From an uncultured Deferribacteres bacterium (lineage in GTDB: Bacteria > Zhuqueibacterota > Zhuqueibacteria > Zhuqueibacterales > Geothermadaptataceae): a DNA stretch of 22,899 nt. The notes beneath the pieces were generated by a model. That model saw only the letters and a list, made by a program, of their open reading frames with translations. It made no database searches and had not been told where the DNA came from. The translations under genes were made by a program, and so were the position numbers. The stretch is from positions 1 to 22,899 of the forward strand of contig CAXHAT010000134.1 of the NCBI GenBank assembly GCA_964014485.1. Reading direction: 5' to 3'. Below are positions 10,063 to 17,217 of the stretch, in pieces (positions within the stretch are counted from its first letter, which is position 1; each line of letters begins with the position of its first letter).

Positions 10063-11277
10063 ATGGCAGCCCAATATACAATCCGAAAACTGTGCTTGCC
10101 GACCAAACATTTGCTTGGCGCGGAACTTGGTAAAAACGCCGCCGCTCGCGTCGATGAATTTGAGCAATTTTATAAAAACCATACGACCACGCTCAAAATT
10201 AAAGCCAAAAACGGCGAGATACCGTCCCGGTTTTTCGCGACACTCTCCTTACGCCAAATTCGTTGCTGGCAGCGAGATGCAAATGTCGCTTATATTTTTA
10301 CCAACGAGCAAACGCTGACGGAATGGAGTCGGAAACAGTCATTTTATTCTGCTGAGGAAGAAGCGTTTCTCACTGAATTGCGAGGATTTCTCAAACGTGT
10401 CAATCGGCGGACGTTTGAGATGCTGAACGAACGCTACATCTTCAAATTTGGCGGCCCAACGCGAATCATGGGCGTGCTGAACGTGACGCCCGATTCATTT
10501 CATGACGGCGGGGAAAATTTTTCTGATGCGGCGCAAGCAATCCGGCGCGGGGTGGCAATGGCGGCCAGCGGCGCGGATATTATTGACGTTGGCGGCGAAT
10601 CGACCCGCCCCGGCGCTTTGCCGGTGGATGAAGCTGAGGAAGCACAACGCGTCGTTCCCGTCATTCAAGGTTTGGCGGAAGAAGTCAACGTCCCCATTTC
10701 AATCGACACCTACAAATCTCACGTTGCAGAAGCGGCGATTCAGGCCGGCGCTACCATCATCAACGACATTAGCGGCCTACAATTTGACCCCCAGATGCCG
10801 GAAGTCTTAAAACACTATGGCGCGCCGCTCATCATGATGCACATCAAAGGCGAGCCGCGAAACATGCAGCTCAATCCGACCTATGAAAACCTCATGGACG
10901 AGTTGTACGAGTATTTCGAGGAGCGCATCGTTTTTGCTGTTTCTCGAGGTGTTGATCGTGCAAAAATCATCATCGACCCCGGCCTCGGCTTTGGCAAAAG
11001 GTTGTGGGACAATTATGAAATTGTTCAGCGGCTCTCAGAATTTAAAGGGCTGGGGTGCCCCGTGATGATCGGGCCTTCGAGAAAGTCGTTCATCGGCAAA
11101 GTATTGGAGTTGCCGCCGGAAGAGCGGCTAGAAGGGACGGCCGGGTTTGTTGCCGCCGCCGTTGGAAACAGCCACATTGTGCGCGTGCATGACGTAAAGG
11201 AAATGTTGCGCGTTGTGCAAATCGCTGATCTGCTCGCCGGAAATGTCATCGTTGAAAGCCAGGAGTTACAGCGATGA
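10063..11277 (+). CDS. folP: Dihydropteroate synthase with ~125-aa N-terminal extension
   Basis: IMGVLNVTPDSFHDGG, IDVGGESTRPG, SIDT, INDISG, IDPGLGFGK, SRKSFIG, VRVHDV. The exact start is uncertain. Confidence 0.93.
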   Translation: MAAQYTIRKLCLPTKHLLGAELGKNAAARVDEFEQFYKNHTTTLKIKAKNGEIPSRFFATLSLRQIRCWQRDANVAYIFTNEQTLTEWSRKQSFYSAEEEAFLTELRGFLKRVNRRTFEMLNERYIFKFGGPTRIMGVLNVTPDSFHDGGENFSDAAQAIRRGVAMAASGADIIDVGGESTRPGALPVDEAEEAQRVVPVIQGLAEEVNVPISIDTYKSHVAEAAIQAGATIINDISGLQFDPQMPEVLKHYGAPLIMMHIKGEPRNMQLNPTYENLMDELYEYFEERIVFAVSRGVDRAKIIIDPGLGFGKRLWDNYEIVQRLSEFKGLGCPVMIGPSRKSFIGKVLELPPEERLEGTAGFVAAAVGNSHIVRVHDVKEMLRVVQIADLLAGNVIVESQELQR

Positions 11278-12059: not shown

Positions 12060-12130
12060 TCGTTATTTGGAAAGCATTGCGGGAAAAGTCGAATGCTCCG
12101 CTGCTAAACAGCTACAAATTGTCATTAAAA

Positions 12131-13147
12131 ATGCAACGATCCTTTTTAAATATTGACCTGGCCGCGATTAAAACCAGGCGCGAAAATCTGCGAAAATACT
12201 CATGCTCCTGGGGCGGCGATAATGACGACGCCCGTGGCCGCGCATTGCTTAAATCCATCCAGGATTACGGCGTTATGCAGCCGGTTACGCTTATTCAGGA
12301 AACACCGAACTCGTTCTTCATCGTCGACGGCTGGAAGAGAATTGCCGCCTTAAAAATACTGGAGCGCAAAGAAATTCCTGCTCAAACGATTCGGGCTGAT
12401 GATTCTTTTTCTAAAGAATCGAAGGCGCACTGGCTCGAATTGAACCGCCATACGCGCGTTATAAATCCGATGGAAAAGGCGTTTTTCCTAAGCAGTTTTT
12501 TGCAGGCGAACGGCGGCGATTCTAGAAAAGTCGCACAGGACTGGGCGGAAAAACTCGAAATTCCCAAAACCGCTGACGCAGTGGAAGATTTTGCCGGATT
12601 TGCAGAACTTCCTGCGGAAATCCAAAATGCTTTGGCAAATTCCGAACTGGCTCCGCACACTGCCATTCTGCTCGCGCGTTTGCAAAAGCAAGATCAACAA
12701 AAACTGTTCAGCGAAGTGCTGCAAAAATGCCGATTCTCGGTCAGCGAAAGCCGCGTTATCGTCGAGCGAATTTTGGACTTGAGCGTTATCGAAGACGCCC
12801 GCGTTAGCGAACTCGTTTCGAACAGGAAGTTTCAGGAAATTCTCTCCAGCAACAGTCTCGCGCCCAAGGAAAAGGGCAGGAAACTTTGGACGTTAGTACA
12901 AGCGTTGCGGTTTCCTGAACGTGAAAAACGGCTGCGTGATATTCGACAAGAATGTGAAAACGTCGCCGCTGCTTCCAACGGCGAAATGACGATTCGCCCG
13001 CCAAAGAACTTTGAATCAGGTGCTCTTCAATTAACGATCACTCTGGTCCAAAATCAAAGTTTGACCGAGGTGAAACGCGCCTTTGACGAGAGAAAAACTC
13101 AAGCTTCAATTGAAAAAATCCGGCGATTGTTGGGGGGCGACAATTGA
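12131..13147 (+). CDS. ParB/Srx-family N-terminal-domain protein (orphan ParB-like)
   Basis: LLKSIQDYGVMQPV...IVDGWKRIAA...EIP...NRHTRVINPMEKA and LPAEIQNAL...LAPHTAILL follow the ParB pattern. Start at ATG 12131 is uncertain (ORF open from 12077). Confidence 0.8.
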   Translation: MQRSFLNIDLAAIKTRRENLRKYSCSWGGDNDDARGRALLKSIQDYGVMQPVTLIQETPNSFFIVDGWKRIAALKILERKEIPAQTIRADDSFSKESKAHWLELNRHTRVINPMEKAFFLSSFLQANGGDSRKVAQDWAEKLEIPKTADAVEDFAGFAELPAEIQNALANSELAPHTAILLARLQKQDQQKLFSEVLQKCRFSVSESRVIVERILDLSVIEDARVSELVSNRKFQEILSSNSLAPKEKGRKLWTLVQALRFPEREKRLRDIRQECENVAAASNGEMTIRPPKNFESGALQLTITLVQNQSLTEVKRAFDERKTQASIEKIRRLLGGDN

Positions 13148-14229
13148 AGGATTTTCAACCAAAATGGCTGCGGATCGAGAAGCGCGCGCTCGATTATCCG
13201 GCGGCGCAAGACATTCTCGAAAAATGCGCCGACGTAGCGGTCGACTACATTGACGATTGGAAGACTCAGGCCGGACGCGGTTTCAGTATCAATCAGCGTT
13301 TCAAGGATGAGAAAAACGGCATCATTTTGGCGGTAAAAGACGGCGCTCTGGTCAAGTCGGTGGATCGCGATCTTTACCGCGAAAACCCGAACGAATTCTA
13401 CATCATCCACTCCATGGGCTGCCCCTATGATTGCCAGTATTGTTTTTTATTCGATTATCTGGACAATCAAATTCCGACTATCTTTGTCAATATTGACGAC
13501 ATTTTGCGCGCCGTTGAAACAACAGTAAATTCAGAAGATTTTCAGACAAAAACAGCACTACACCCGGGGGTTTTTCACGCGGGGGAGTTCTCCGACGCGC
13601 TGGCGTTTGACCATCTCACCAATCTCTCGGCGCCGTTGGTGCAATTGTTCGGGCGGCTCGAAAACGCACGGCTCGAGTTGCGCACCAAAAGCGATAATAT
13701 CGAGAATCTGCTGGATTTGGAGCATCGCGGGAAGACCACTGTTTCCTGGACTTTTTCGCCGCAAGCAACCGCCAAAAACATTGAATTTCACACCGCGAGT
13801 CTGGACGAACGGATTGCCGCGGCGAAACGCTGCCAGGAGGCGGGTTACCCGATTGGGCTTCGCTTCGATCCAATTGTTTATTTTGATGATTGGGAAAATG
13901 GTTTTGAAGACATGATTTTGTGCATTTTCGCCGAGCTTGATCCGGCGGGAATTCAAGATTGCTCGCTCGGCATATACCGCGCAACCCCCGGTTTGAACAA
14001 CATTGTGCGGCGGCGATTCCCGCGTTCAAAACTTCATCTTGGCGAAATGGAGCAAGCCGGTGACGGCAAGTATCGCTACATTCGTCCCGTCCGTGTGAGG
14101 ATGCTCAAGAAAATCTCCGCCTTGCTGCGCTCATGCGCGCCGAATCTCAAAATTGAGCTTTGCATGGAATCGCCGGAGGTGGAAGGGGCGCTTTTACCGC
14201 ATATTGAAAGGGGTGAAGTTTCACCGTAA
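13144..14229 (+). CDS. Spore photoproduct lyase (SplB)-like radical SAM protein
   Basis: CxxxCxxC motif GCPYDCQYC, then FVNIDDIL, SD..AFDHLT, LRTKS, LLDLEHRGKT, SLDERIAAA..CQEAGYPIG..FDPI, KYRY and LCMES, all resembling SplB. The TTG start overlaps the ParB-like stop (TTGA). Confidence 0.85.
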   Translation: MKDFQPKWLRIEKRALDYPAAQDILEKCADVAVDYIDDWKTQAGRGFSINQRFKDEKNGIILAVKDGALVKSVDRDLYRENPNEFYIIHSMGCPYDCQYCFLFDYLDNQIPTIFVNIDDILRAVETTVNSEDFQTKTALHPGVFHAGEFSDALAFDHLTNLSAPLVQLFGRLENARLELRTKSDNIENLLDLEHRGKTTVSWTFSPQATAKNIEFHTASLDERIAAAKRCQEAGYPIGLRFDPIVYFDDWENGFEDMILCIFAELDPAGIQDCSLGIYRATPGLNNIVRRRFPRSKLHLGEMEQAGDGKYRYIRPVRVRMLKKISALLRSCAPNLKIELCMESPEVEGALLPHIERGEVSP

Positions 14230-14290: not shown

Positions 14291-14566
14291 TTAAACTCGC
14301 TGGAGTTCCTTATCAATGCGTTCTTTGAGAAAGATTTTTATCAAAGATTGATACGGAACATCCCGCTTGTGCGCGATAACGCGTAGCTCATTCAGCATAA
14401 ATTCCGGCAAGCGTAGGGAAATCGTTTTCGTTGAAGGTTTCAACTTCGGGAAGGTTTGACGTTCAGCCCGATCCCAATGGACAAAATCTGTTGAATCGGC
14501 GTTTGCCCAAAATTCGCGTTCTTCTGATTCGGATTTAAACTCAGGGATTTCTTTTAATTCTTTCAT
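14291..14566 (-). CDS. BrnA/CopG-like antitoxin (ribbon-helix-helix)
   Basis: IPEFKSESEEREFW..DST N-terminus and KTISLRLP..L..IAHKRDVPYQSLIK RHH C-terminus. Overlaps the end of the upstream BrnT gene. Confidence 0.88.
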   Translation of the reverse strand: MKELKEIPEFKSESEEREFWANADSTDFVHWDRAERQTFPKLKPSTKTISLRLPEFMLNELRVIAHKRDVPYQSLIKIFLKERIDKELQRV

Positions 14567-14855
14567 AGTATTTCTTCTCTTCACGCTTAGTCATATCTCG
14601 AGCCGAGATCACTCGAATCAAAGTATTTCTTATAGCAAAGGAGATAAACAAAAAGCGGCTCTGATCAGTTCGCCCTAGAATGTAATATCGATTCTCCAAG
14701 GTGGAATGCTTTTCATCGTTCGAAACAATAAAAGGTCGATTAAAGAATACTTCTTCGCATTCGCTGTCGGTAACATCGTGGGATAGGTAGTTTTTGTTTG
14801 TATTCCCTTGATCCCAATCAAACCCTGTACACTGTTCCAGTATTTTTGGTGCCAT
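14541..14855 (-). CDS. BrnT family toxin (ribonuclease)
   Basis: GFDWD..N..KN..H.V...ECEEVF, HS..E.RY..LG.T and IRVISAR motifs. Start taken at ATG 14855. Confidence 0.9.
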   Translation of the reverse strand: MAPKILEQCTGFDWDQGNTNKNYLSHDVTDSECEEVFFNRPFIVSNDEKHSTLENRYYILGRTDQSRFLFISFAIRNTLIRVISARDMTKREEKKYYERIKRNP

Positions 14856-14858
14856 AAA

Positions 14859-14889
14859 GTATATAACAAAAATATACACGCCGTGGCAA
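14859..14889 (-). promoter_or_regulatory. Putative brnTA promoter with overlapping inverted-repeat operator
   Basis: Minus strand TTGCCA (14889-14884), then TG-T-TATATA. The inverted repeat GTATAT-N7-ATATAC (14859-14877) overlaps the -10 region, 3 bp from the ATG. Confidence 0.45.
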
Positions 14890-15520: not shown

Positions 15521-16207
15521 ATGAATGATAACGCCATCATTTCGATCATTATCCCCACCTTAAATGAAGCGAAATTTATCCGAAAAACGCTGAAAAAAGT
15601 GCAATCCCTACCTGGGAATTTTGAGTTCATTGTTGTCGATGGCAGAAGCTCAGACGGTACGGCGGAAGCGGTCGCGGAAACAGGCGTCAAGCTCGTTTCG
15701 ACTGCGCGCGGCAGAGGGCCGCAGATGAACGCGGGTGCATGCGCGGCTTCGGGAAATGTTTTGCTCTTTCTGCACGCTGATACGGCTCTGCCCGAAAACG
15801 CCTACGAATTAGTGCAAGATGCGCTGCAAAAGGAAGAAATCGGCGGCGGCTGTTTTCGGTTGAAATTTGACAGTCGTCGCCCAATGCTGCGTTTTTACTC
15901 ATTTTGCAGCCGCATTCCTTGTTCGTTTTTTCAGTACGGCGATTGCGCCTACTTTGTGCGCACCGAAATTTTTCAAGAGATCGGCGGCTTCAAATCCTTT
16001 CCATTGATGGAAGACGTCGATTTTTGGCGGCGGCTGAAAAAACGATGCAAAACGGTCGTTCTGCGTCAGGCGGTCACCGTTTCCGCCAGAAGATTTTTGA
16101 AGTACGGCGCCGTGCGTCAGCAATTACGTTCAGCTTTTCTGTTGCTGTTGTATCTGCTCGGAATTCATCCGACAAAACTGAAAAAATTCTATCCGGACGT
16201 TCGATAA
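15521..16207 (+). CDS. GT2 glycosyltransferase, TIGR04283-like (rSAM/selenodomain- or arsenosugar-associated family)
   Basis: ISIIIPTLNE, IVVDGRSSDGT, GRGPQMNAGA, LLFLHADT, YGD, GGF..PLMEDV, SARRF. True start taken as ATG 15521, not 15011. Confidence 0.85.
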   Translation: MNDNAIISIIIPTLNEAKFIRKTLKKVQSLPGNFEFIVVDGRSSDGTAEAVAETGVKLVSTARGRGPQMNAGACAASGNVLLFLHADTALPENAYELVQDALQKEEIGGGCFRLKFDSRRPMLRFYSFCSRIPCSFFQYGDCAYFVRTEIFQEIGGFKSFPLMEDVDFWRRLKKRCKTVVLRQAVTVSARRFLKYGAVRQQLRSAFLLLLYLLGIHPTKLKKFYPDVR

Positions 16208-16221
16208 TTTGGGAGAAGCGT

Positions 16222-17217
16222 ATGGCTGGAAAAACCGATTCATTGGTCAAGCCGAGTTTAGCGGAACTCATCATCTATCCTTTTCGCACGCTGTGGCACT
16301 GGACGCATTCGAATATCCACATGACCTGGCAGACATTGATCGTTTTGAAGTTTATGTTTATTCAGAAGCTTGGGCCGAACGTTTTGGATAAAACGCACGG
16401 TTGGGTGACCGGGGAAATGCGCGACGGCGAAGGCGCCGTGTGGTCCAAAAACATTGCGTACGCTTCAAAGCGCAAGGGAACCGGATTTTTGGCTGAGCCT
16501 GAAGAAGATCGTGTGATTGTTGAGCGTATTGGGAAGTTTCTGGCGGCAATGGTGCAGAAATCCGTCACTCAGGATGAAATACCGCAGGGACGAAAACGGC
16601 GCATGCCGCACGCCGTGAACTATATCCACGGGACGGTGCAATATAACGGATGCTACGCAATTTTCAATGATTTTAAAGATGCGATGGCGCACTTGTCGGA
16701 TCGTAAATTCGTGAAAGAAATGAAGCGCTTTGCACGCGAAGAAAATCGGGAGCTGACCATCGTTTTGCGCGAGCGCAAATATGACCCGACAGAGTACGCC
16801 TGGTTTTTGGCCTTTGTCCGCGCCTATTTGCCGTGGTACGCCAACGCCAATGGTCCGACCAAAAAGCGCGTTTTGCACGGCACGCCCAGTCCATACCCGG
16901 CGGTCAATCCGATCAACGGCGTTTGGATGCGGGACTTGCAGCGGCTTTATAACGGCGAACGCGAAACGCTGCTTTTGCCGCCGCTTGAACAAGGGAAATA
17001 TTTTCAGGGACAGTATCAAGGCTATCGCAAAACATACAACCTTGTGGAGCGGTTCCACGTTTGGGTGCAAGACTTGATTGTGCGCACGAAGGGATTTCAA
17101 GGCGCGCTCGTTTTTACCAAACGCGAAAAAATTGAGCCGGAAAATCTTATGAAATACAAAGAAAGCGGCGGCAAGTGGCGCTCCGGCTACGACGTGCCGA
17201 ATCCGTTTCGAAACTAA
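16222..17217 (+). CDS. Hypothetical protein (331 aa), family not recognised
   Basis: GGGAGA RBS at 16211-16216, ATG 14 bp after the GT stop, protein-like composition, and it fills the gap to the convergent gene. Confidence 0.8.
   Translation: MAGKTDSLVKPSLAELIIYPFRTLWHWTHSNIHMTWQTLIVLKFMFIQKLGPNVLDKTHGWVTGEMRDGEGAVWSKNIAYASKRKGTGFLAEPEEDRVIVERIGKFLAAMVQKSVTQDEIPQGRKRRMPHAVNYIHGTVQYNGCYAIFNDFKDAMAHLSDRKFVKEMKRFAREENRELTIVLRERKYDPTEYAWFLAFVRAYLPWYANANGPTKKRVLHGTPSPYPAVNPINGVWMRDLQRLYNGERETLLLPPLEQGKYFQGQYQGYRKTYNLVERFHVWVQDLIVRTKGFQGALVFTKREKIEPENLMKYKESGGKWRSGYDVPNPFRN

Follow-up and report, generated by a model that had tools for sequence, protein, structure and literature searches.

A ParB-like gene overlaps an SPL-like radical SAM gene

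The window analyzed here is a stretch of 22,899 nucleotides from an uncultured Deferribacteres bacterium (contig CAXHAT010000134.1), in which two overlapping genes encode a ParB-like protein (hereafter the partner) and a radical SAM protein resembling spore-photoproduct (SP) lyase (SPL-like; hereafter the enzyme). The partner gene (12131-13147, +, 338 aa) starts with ATG; an in-frame TTG at 12077 could add 18 aa, and the ATG was taken as the start because positions 2-323 of the family profile map to 12134-13132. The enzyme gene (13144-14229, +, 361 aa) starts with TTG, immediately 3' of a G-rich run, and encodes what we term the His subtype, which lacks an upstream Cys triad. The stop of the first gene and the start of the second share a TTGA at 13144-13147 (+), as an earlier note on this DNA had described, and a 4-base overlap is also seen at loci L010, L039, L088, L146, and L183, so the pair is not one gene split by a sequencing error. 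That note had further reported neither parA nor sporulation genes in the window, which inspection of the list of open reading frames (ORFs) and a Pfam scan of 14 of them bore out. Other contigs of the genome carry a canonical parAB (L001) and another parAB of plasmid-like type (L002). The host genome is 97% complete and contains one SPL-like gene; a 54%-identical enzyme is found in a KSB1 record (L005), which makes KSB1 the likely identity of the host. The DNA itself occurs in marine metagenome runs of a single study, with no RNA data set listed for it.

The enzyme scores 137 bits against the Pfam SPL family (cut-off 27) and 143 bits against TIGR04070, short of the cut-off of 400. Its AlphaFold2 model (mean predicted local distance difference test (pLDDT) score 92.8) matches SP lyase 4FHC over the whole length in Foldseek (TM score 0.80, E 6e-28), and SP lyase is its sole close structural match. 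With SplB (Geobacillus thermodenitrificans 4FHC-4FHG, 4K9R, and 4RH0; TIGR04070; PF20903) it shares the fold, the CxxxCxxC [4Fe-4S] motif with its tyrosine (Tyr96/97 in SplB) and the phosphate-binding Arg273/274 and Lys309/310. In the window these are C93/C97/C100 and Y99 (13420-13443, +; Cys in 192/192 and Tyr in 188/192 type-A sequences), R279 (185/192), and K309 (191/192); C340 is kept in 173/192.

The available part of PMC3467042 assigns hydrogen donation in SP lyase to Cys140/141, base contacts to Arg193, Glu268, and Tyr339 and phosphate contacts to Arg273 and Lys309, and reports a proposal that the hairpin tip aids lesion flip-out. In the window enzyme the donor position is occupied by E148 (13585-13587, +; Glu in 189/192), and the 32 residues before the cluster motif contain no Cys, so none stands at the Clostridium donor position 76. 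Relative to Bacillus velezensis SplB, E148 replaces Cys141, S201 replaces Arg194, and both Glu269 and Tyr340 are lost. The β-hairpin (residues 301-312; 14044-14079, +), which retains K309, is six residues shorter and lacks the Arg305-Tyr306 tip. The tip is deleted in all 20 aligned rows, where the base-contact columns Arg193, Glu268, and Tyr339 read Ser, Gly/Ser, and Leu/Cys. The phosphate site thus appears to survive, whereas base recognition, flipping, and hydrogen return appear changed. Judged by the defining sequence features, the enzyme falls outside classical SP lyase, and repair of the spore photoproduct is unlikely, since the donor Cys has been lost together with the tip of the hairpin and the residues that contact the base.

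In Pfam, gene 1 matches ParB_N at 22 bits (E 1.4e-4) and HTH_ParB at E 3e-4, in each case under the cut-off. It also matches Noc/ParB/Spo0J structures with E values of 2e-6 to 3e-3, and it reaches the cut-off of neither TIGR00180 (41 bits, cut-off 58) nor TIGR04285 (43 bits, cut-off 315). The best Foldseek matches of its AlphaFold2 model (pLDDT 93.8) are Noc/ParB (E 5e-9), over about the first 215 residues. Its architecture comprises a degenerate ParB/Srx head, a helix-turn-helix (HTH)-like domain, a helical adaptor region, and a family-specific C-terminal domain. The head (residues 1-108; 12131-12454, +) aligns with PadC in VIA-align with a Z score of 11.6 and a root mean square deviation of 1.8 over 97 aligned residues, tied with pNOB8 ParB and sulfiredoxin. 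It keeps S42, G47, R70, and N105, carries W68 where the hydrolytic Glu would stand, and has neither QPR nor a ParA-binding motif.

The hydrolytic Gln of box I and the hydrolytic Glu of the GERR motif each occur in 0/97 partners and in 18/18 canonical ParBs; box I is gappy in the partner alignment, and the QPR string is nonetheless absent from all 97. The ParA-binding motif is found in 0/97 partners versus 17/18 canonical ParBs, and a parA neighbor cluster is present at canonical loci only. The CTP-binding positions (Mx S68, G73, R54, R95, and N127, with roles taken from the available part of PMC13229309) are kept in 77, 84, 3, 82, and 51 of the 97 partners, so that most retain the cytosine-site Ser, the Gly, and one phosphate Arg. 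Given that S42, G47, R70, and N105 are kept in the window protein, the partner may bind nucleotide without hydrolyzing it, in the manner of PadC; a CTP-hydrolyzing sliding clamp, a strong form of the clamp suggested in the earlier note, is not supported, given the loss of both hydrolytic residues. Chromosomal ParB/Spo0J, Noc, and PadC thus have the head, the HTH-like domain, and a partial CTP pocket in common with the partner, which differs from ParB/Spo0J/Noc in lacking the parS-contact residues as well as QPR, the GERR Glu, the ParA motif, and the parA neighbor, and in possessing the helical region and the C-terminal domain. In a quick IQ-TREE phylogeny, in which the window sequence sits at the end of a long branch, the 18 canonical ParB rows are set apart from the partners by a branch with support of 99; by its defining features the partner falls outside canonical ParB/Noc.

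The most conserved portion of the partner is its C-terminal half, with the family motifs R260-F261-P262 (12908-12916, +; R260 and P262 each conserved in ≥90% of 126 rows) and F294-E295 (13010-13015, +; E295 invariant in the same rows). Most partners retain the head and HTH, and at seven loci (L041, L296, and L302-L306) a gene for the C-terminal half alone lies directly 5' of the enzyme gene, six of them encoding 168-208 aa and that of L296 lying within a 494-aa frame. Given these head-less partners and the missing hydrolytic residues, neither the CTP-hydrolyzing clamp nor the other role that had been suggested, a ParB/Srx-fold nucleotide-using enzyme, is supported.

The two genes are conserved side by side in several phyla

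An HMMER search for the partner gave 1,350 matches at E ≤ 0.001, a word-index search having recovered only the query itself. The phylum-wide searches scored 12-16 candidates per genome, which makes absences soft, and 20 genomes were rechecked with all candidates scored. In the phylum of the host, an SPL-like gene was detected in 144/167 genomes and in 102 of the 105 good ones, nearly always in single copy. Among the matches listed, in which partial partners may be undercounted, the 110 genomes with an enzyme of ordinary length (type A) have the partner directly upstream in 95 cases, within 1.1 kb in 3, elsewhere in 6, and not at all in 6. For a second phylum, to which the deltaproteobacterium-labeled record G204 belongs, 151 genomes were sampled. 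Both genes are present in 80 of these genomes, the enzyme only in 13, the partner only in 1, and neither in 57; related genomes are not independent, and we place no weight on a co-occurrence p-value. When both are present, the partner lies directly upstream in 50 genomes, directly downstream in 2, nearby in 2, and unlinked in 26. Ten of the 13 genomes scored as enzyme only were examined: seven have a half partner directly upstream, one has a full partner missed by the genome search (L308), and two have none (L307 and L309).

The 67 loci from named genomes with at least 1.3 kb of upstream DNA include 29 with the partner directly upstream, 4 with it nearby, and 34 without. By their record labels, the 29 belong to Spirochaetota, Planctomycetota, Nitrospinota, Elusimicrobiota, deltaproteobacteria, and unclassified bacteria. 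Most of the 34 loci without it come from Scalindua and Nitrospinaceae, and an unlinked partner is still present in 20/21 Scalindua-group and 11/13 Nitrospina-group genomes (partial matches included). The adjacency of the pair is therefore far above chance and is not confined to one lineage, and the earlier note's picture of a dedicated and conserved two-gene module is upheld. Two distant SPL-like matches were found in annotated phages.

The enzymes fall into subtypes in a FastTree phylogeny. A Cys-triad form with 3 or 4 extra cysteines before the cluster motif accounts for 88/192 sequences, the triad-less His form, which includes the window enzyme, comprises 28 rows (local support 91), and type B (424-491 aa), with the triad and an N-terminal extension of ~110 aa, is nested in the Cys-triad group (support 100). 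With close kin excluded, the nearest partner belongs to the same enzyme subtype in 86/91 pairs; by this sequence comparison, partners track the enzyme subtype and not the host. In an hhalign comparison, the type-B extension is similar to residues 175-231 of the partner (E 3.6e-5, versus 0.26 for canonical ParB), within the helical adaptor region (residues 172-262; 12644-12916, +), and an adaptor-region profile run over 7,374 ORFs placed 15/15 type-B enzymes in the top 20 non-family matches, above every canonical ParB. Type B is thus likely a partial fusion of the partner's adaptor helices to the enzyme. Across the 29 genomes of the host's order, 18 have type B only, 6 the His form only, 2 both, and 3 neither, so that the two forms are mostly alternatives there. 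Eight of the nine other members of the host's family gave a match, all eight of type B; the host genome has therefore probably swapped one enzyme form for another.

Several loci with unusual architectures were noted. Type-B enzymes at L193-L208 (for example L193:3566-4864) combine the fused helical extension with Gln at the Cys140 position, and similar proteins in the Atlas come mainly from Campylobacterota. Intact His-form partners are found at L229-L231, in genomes whose only enzyme is type B. An apparent full ParB-SPL fusion (a 636-aa ORF at L293) was rejected, as the ORF crosses a run of unknown bases, and long N-terminal extensions at L145, L154, L294, L297, and L300 gave no Pfam match in the extension. 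In Fusobacterium (L314:2098-3969) a nucleoside-phosphorylase-like domain is fused to the SPL-like enzyme and followed by a short-chain dehydrogenase, and L309:2199-4820 shows a similar order with separate genes. Neither the Fusobacterium nucleosidase-SPL linker nor the L309 upstream protein has a sequence match to the adaptor profile; comparison with the Atlas gives a structural hint alone for the predicted folds (TM 0.53-0.55).

The two proteins are predicted to form a complex

Models of the pair scored 0.72, 0.74, and 0.74, compared with 0.00, 0.00, and 0.41 for controls. Of 157 solved complexes, 116 reach the mark used for this score, as do 2 of 215 mismatched pairs; with the alignments used here these figures apply only roughly. 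The runs share at least 95% of their contacts, with a partner pLDDT of at least 86. The predicted interface joins enzyme residues 289-319, with the shortened hairpin at its core, to partner residues 212-220, 261-267, 293-297, and 333-337, which would bring together the helix fused in type B and both conserved motifs (RFP, through residues 261-262, and FE). No partner protein appears in the titles of the six listed SP lyase structures, so recall of a like complex by the model is unlikely. The interface agrees with three separate lines, namely conservation, the head-less partners, and the partial fusion. In the predicted complex, the C-terminal half of the partner grips the shortened hairpin of the enzyme. 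The interaction on which the earlier note had hinged its proposal is thus predicted, and we consider a physical partnership of the two proteins very probable.

A glycosyltransferase clade accompanies many of the pairs

One clade of family 2 glycosyltransferases (GT2) is set apart by a score gap (E ≤ 8e-97 versus 8e-71 and weaker). In the second phylum, with a profile seeded largely with loci of that same sample, the clade and the enzyme are found together in 83 genomes, the enzyme only in 10, the glycosyltransferase only in 1, and neither in 57. The GT2 gene is often directly 5' of the pair, and in L295 it is fused to a second copy of the partner. Of 70 enzymes scored in this phylum, the GT2 accompanies 62/64 with the Cys triad and 0/6 without it. 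A GT2 gene in the window itself (15545-16207, TIGR04283) was considered as a member of this clade and rejected at 27-29% identity.

Possible functions of the pair

Among radical SAM enzymes of DNA repair SP lyase is the reference, yet SPL-like genes of non-sporulating organisms have no known substrate. The SP lyase fold together with the conserved phosphate-binding Arg and Lys suggests that the substrate is a nucleic acid, which we regard as probable; action on DNA we infer. We tentatively favor, with somewhat less than even confidence, a two-subunit enzyme in which an SP-lyase-fold radical enzyme and a ParB-derived partner carry out radical chemistry on a DNA base, with modification likelier than repair of the spore photoproduct; the preference for modification over repair itself carries modest odds. 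The partner would stand in for the lost hairpin tip, either by keeping the enzyme on DNA or by offering it the base, and the ParB head would be an optional accessory, dead as a CTPase, for docking or dimerizing. With R279 and K309 binding the phosphate of the base, the 5'-deoxyadenosyl radical would take a hydrogen from that base and, without the donor Cys, the base radical might end as an adduct rather than revert to thymine. According to the available part of PMC3467042, SP lyase mutated at Cys140 leaves a thymine-SO2 adduct.

A precedent for this design is offered by the 5mYOX clade C1 thymine dioxygenases of phages, which, as far as the available part of PMC13229309 goes, require a cognate ParB-like activator on double-stranded DNA whose NTP-site mutations have little effect. 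There the enzyme is an oxygen-using Fe/2-oxoglutarate dioxygenase from phages, whereas here it is a chromosomal radical SAM protein; the phage ParB has no DNA-binding domain and largely keeps its CTP residues, whereas the partner keeps an HTH-like domain, has lost the hydrolytic residues, and can lose the whole head. By analogy, the pair may work like these systems in design without being a member of the family. If true, this would be the second case, after the phage thymine dioxygenases, of a ParB turned enzyme activator, and on the chromosomes of several phyla.

Given the association with the glycosyltransferase, we speculated that a specific GT2 may act next in many lineages. The pair would then belong to a widespread, chromosomal, oxygen-independent pathway in which a partner-loaded SPL-like enzyme functionalizes a DNA base for glycosylation by the GT2, much as JBP/TET and a glycosyltransferase do in succession but anaerobically. 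It would come in three interchangeable architectures: with the partner complete including its ParB head, with the partner head-less, or with the adaptor helices built into the enzyme. We rate this extension as rather unlikely. The clade is absent from 4/4 His-subtype genomes of the second phylum and 5/5 Cys-triad genomes of the host's own phylum in which all candidates were scored, the Scalindua group shows no clade-level match and just weaker full-length ones, and in the host genome the single-copy ortholog is unlinked to the pair (G000:C48:30290-31153, -). The GT2 is not obligatory to the pair.

Besides these GT2 results, several observations weigh against a two-subunit enzyme that modifies DNA. 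As the thymine-contacting residues of SP lyase are not kept, there is no particular pointer to thymine, and the ParB DNA-contact residues are lost from the partner HTH, a region of which (residues 124-133 and 148-155) contacts the enzyme in the model. The partner is somewhat sticky, the score of 0.41 having been obtained with an unrelated chain, and, taken sequence by sequence, the signal of a fusion is weak (hhalign probabilities of 71% and 37%). Sixteen own-phylum genomes keep the partner without a type-A enzyme, nine of them with type B, and type B alone was found in 5/5 such genomes rechecked with all candidates scored, which speaks against strict coupling. Finally, no DNA-repair or DNA-modification gene recurs near the pair across lineages.

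The best-surviving alternative, which we consider possible though unlikely, is DNA repair by the same two-subunit enzyme, directed not at the spore photoproduct but at another lesion, such as a cross-link or adduct, with another hydrogen donor, for example C340, Y99, or a small molecule. The nearly always single-copy, housekeeping-like occurrence of SPL-like genes would suit such a role, as would the conservation of C340 and the LexA sites predicted at other SplB-like genes (in the available part of PMC3323433). An endonuclease III gene adjoins the enzyme gene in 10 metagenome loci, but this link is confined to L144-L159. Moreover, the window protein has no hydrogen donor at either known position, and the tight link to the GT2 clade in the second phylum would be unexpected for a repair enzyme.

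It is slightly more doubtful that the substrate is something other than DNA, the pair serving to make or tailor a small molecule, a nucleotide, an RNA base, or a protein, with the ParB-derived protein as a scaffold or as the substrate itself. The loss of the base-contact and HTH DNA-contact residues and the seven partners without a ParB head would fit this view, and the genes near related enzymes encode, among others, GT2, short-chain dehydrogenases, and a nucleoside-phosphorylase-like domain; the GT2 matches cell-envelope transferases, but only under their cut-offs. However, both proteins stem from DNA-acting families, the two phosphate-binding residues are nearly invariant, and most partners retain the ParB head and HTH.

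A true SP lyase aided by a CTP-driven ParB sliding clamp appears improbable. SP lyase is the only close structure of the enzyme, the retained CTP-site residues would allow PadC-like binding without hydrolysis, and a loop Cys of the Cys-triad subtype could occupy the place of the Clostridium donor Cys. Opposed to this are the 0/97 occurrence of the hydrolytic Gln, the hydrolytic Glu, and QPR, the TIGR04070 score far below its cut-off, and the lack of donor Cys and hairpin tip in the window enzyme; the named hosts of the pair are not known spore formers. That the two genes are merely co-transcribed neighbors with separate jobs is most improbable of all: the unlinked second-phylum, Scalindua, and Nitrospina genes and the orphan partners would agree with it, but co-occurrence persists when the genes are unlinked, partners track enzyme subtypes, the predicted interface falls on conserved motifs, and a partial fusion is likely.

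Other SplB-like genes with linked partners have been described, with DUF4130 and uracil-DNA glycosylase (PMC3765255) and, in archaea, with NreB (PMC4929162). In the available parts of these sources, the hosts are likewise non-sporulating and the substrate likewise unassigned, the archaeal SPL-like genes having no known substrate, and the partners differ from the ParB-derived one; the available text of PMC3765255 contains the word ParB 0 times. In Bacillus, splB follows splA, whereas the window enzyme has its dedicated partner. No published description of the pair was found in a literature search that had Iyer et al. 2013 (NAR gkt573), the likeliest earlier mention, and most subscription papers outside its reach, and the module thus appears undescribed, as the earlier note had supposed. 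The text of a ParB-fold survey (PMC12704722) contains none of the terms spore, photoproduct, radical SAM, and SplB, and its six supplements none of photoproduct, SPL, radical SAM, and PF20903.

A large branch of SPL-like enzymes is now defined by a dedicated partner, a predicted interface open to mutation, an altered active site, and the GT2 associated with it, which makes the question of its substrate testable. To this the window adds the triad-less subtype, the weak GT2 link of that subtype, and the accord of the predicted interface with the head-less partners and the likely partial fusion.

Surrounding genes

The pair sits 3' of folP-cdaA in the host genome. A link to cdaA and cyclic di-AMP was considered and rejected: in the four relatives with downstream DNA (L407 and L409-L411) folP-cdaA is followed by unrelated genes and not by the pair, a fifth (L408) ends at folP-cdaA and gives no downstream DNA, and cdaA is absent from every other pair locus searched. 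The scans for promoters and terminators gave 8 hits versus 4.5 ± 2.3 expected and 7 versus 8.2, respectively, and neither was informative. In the subclade of L037, L038, L139, L140, and L143, a gene of 105-117 aa precedes the enzyme gene and encodes what we take, by eye, to be a sterol-carrier (SCP2) domain. The plasmid-like parAB of the host (L002, G000:C59) has a Rep-like ORF downstream, labeled by reading, which suggests a plasmid or integrated element.

Immediately 3' of the pair lie genes for a BrnT toxin and a CopG/BrnA-type antitoxin (14291-14879, -), with a lower G+C content of about 44%. Farther on (15545-17217, +), the TIGR04283 (arsenosugar-type) GT2 gene has a 4-base overlap with a 337-aa ORF that gave no Pfam or NCBIfam match, and a SLOG (TIGR00725) gene lies divergently upstream of this GT2. 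On the other side of the pair, the dihydropteroate synthase (10063-11277, +) carries an N-terminal extension of ~130 aa beyond the Pfam domain, and its length and N-terminus are similar in 5/5 relatives.

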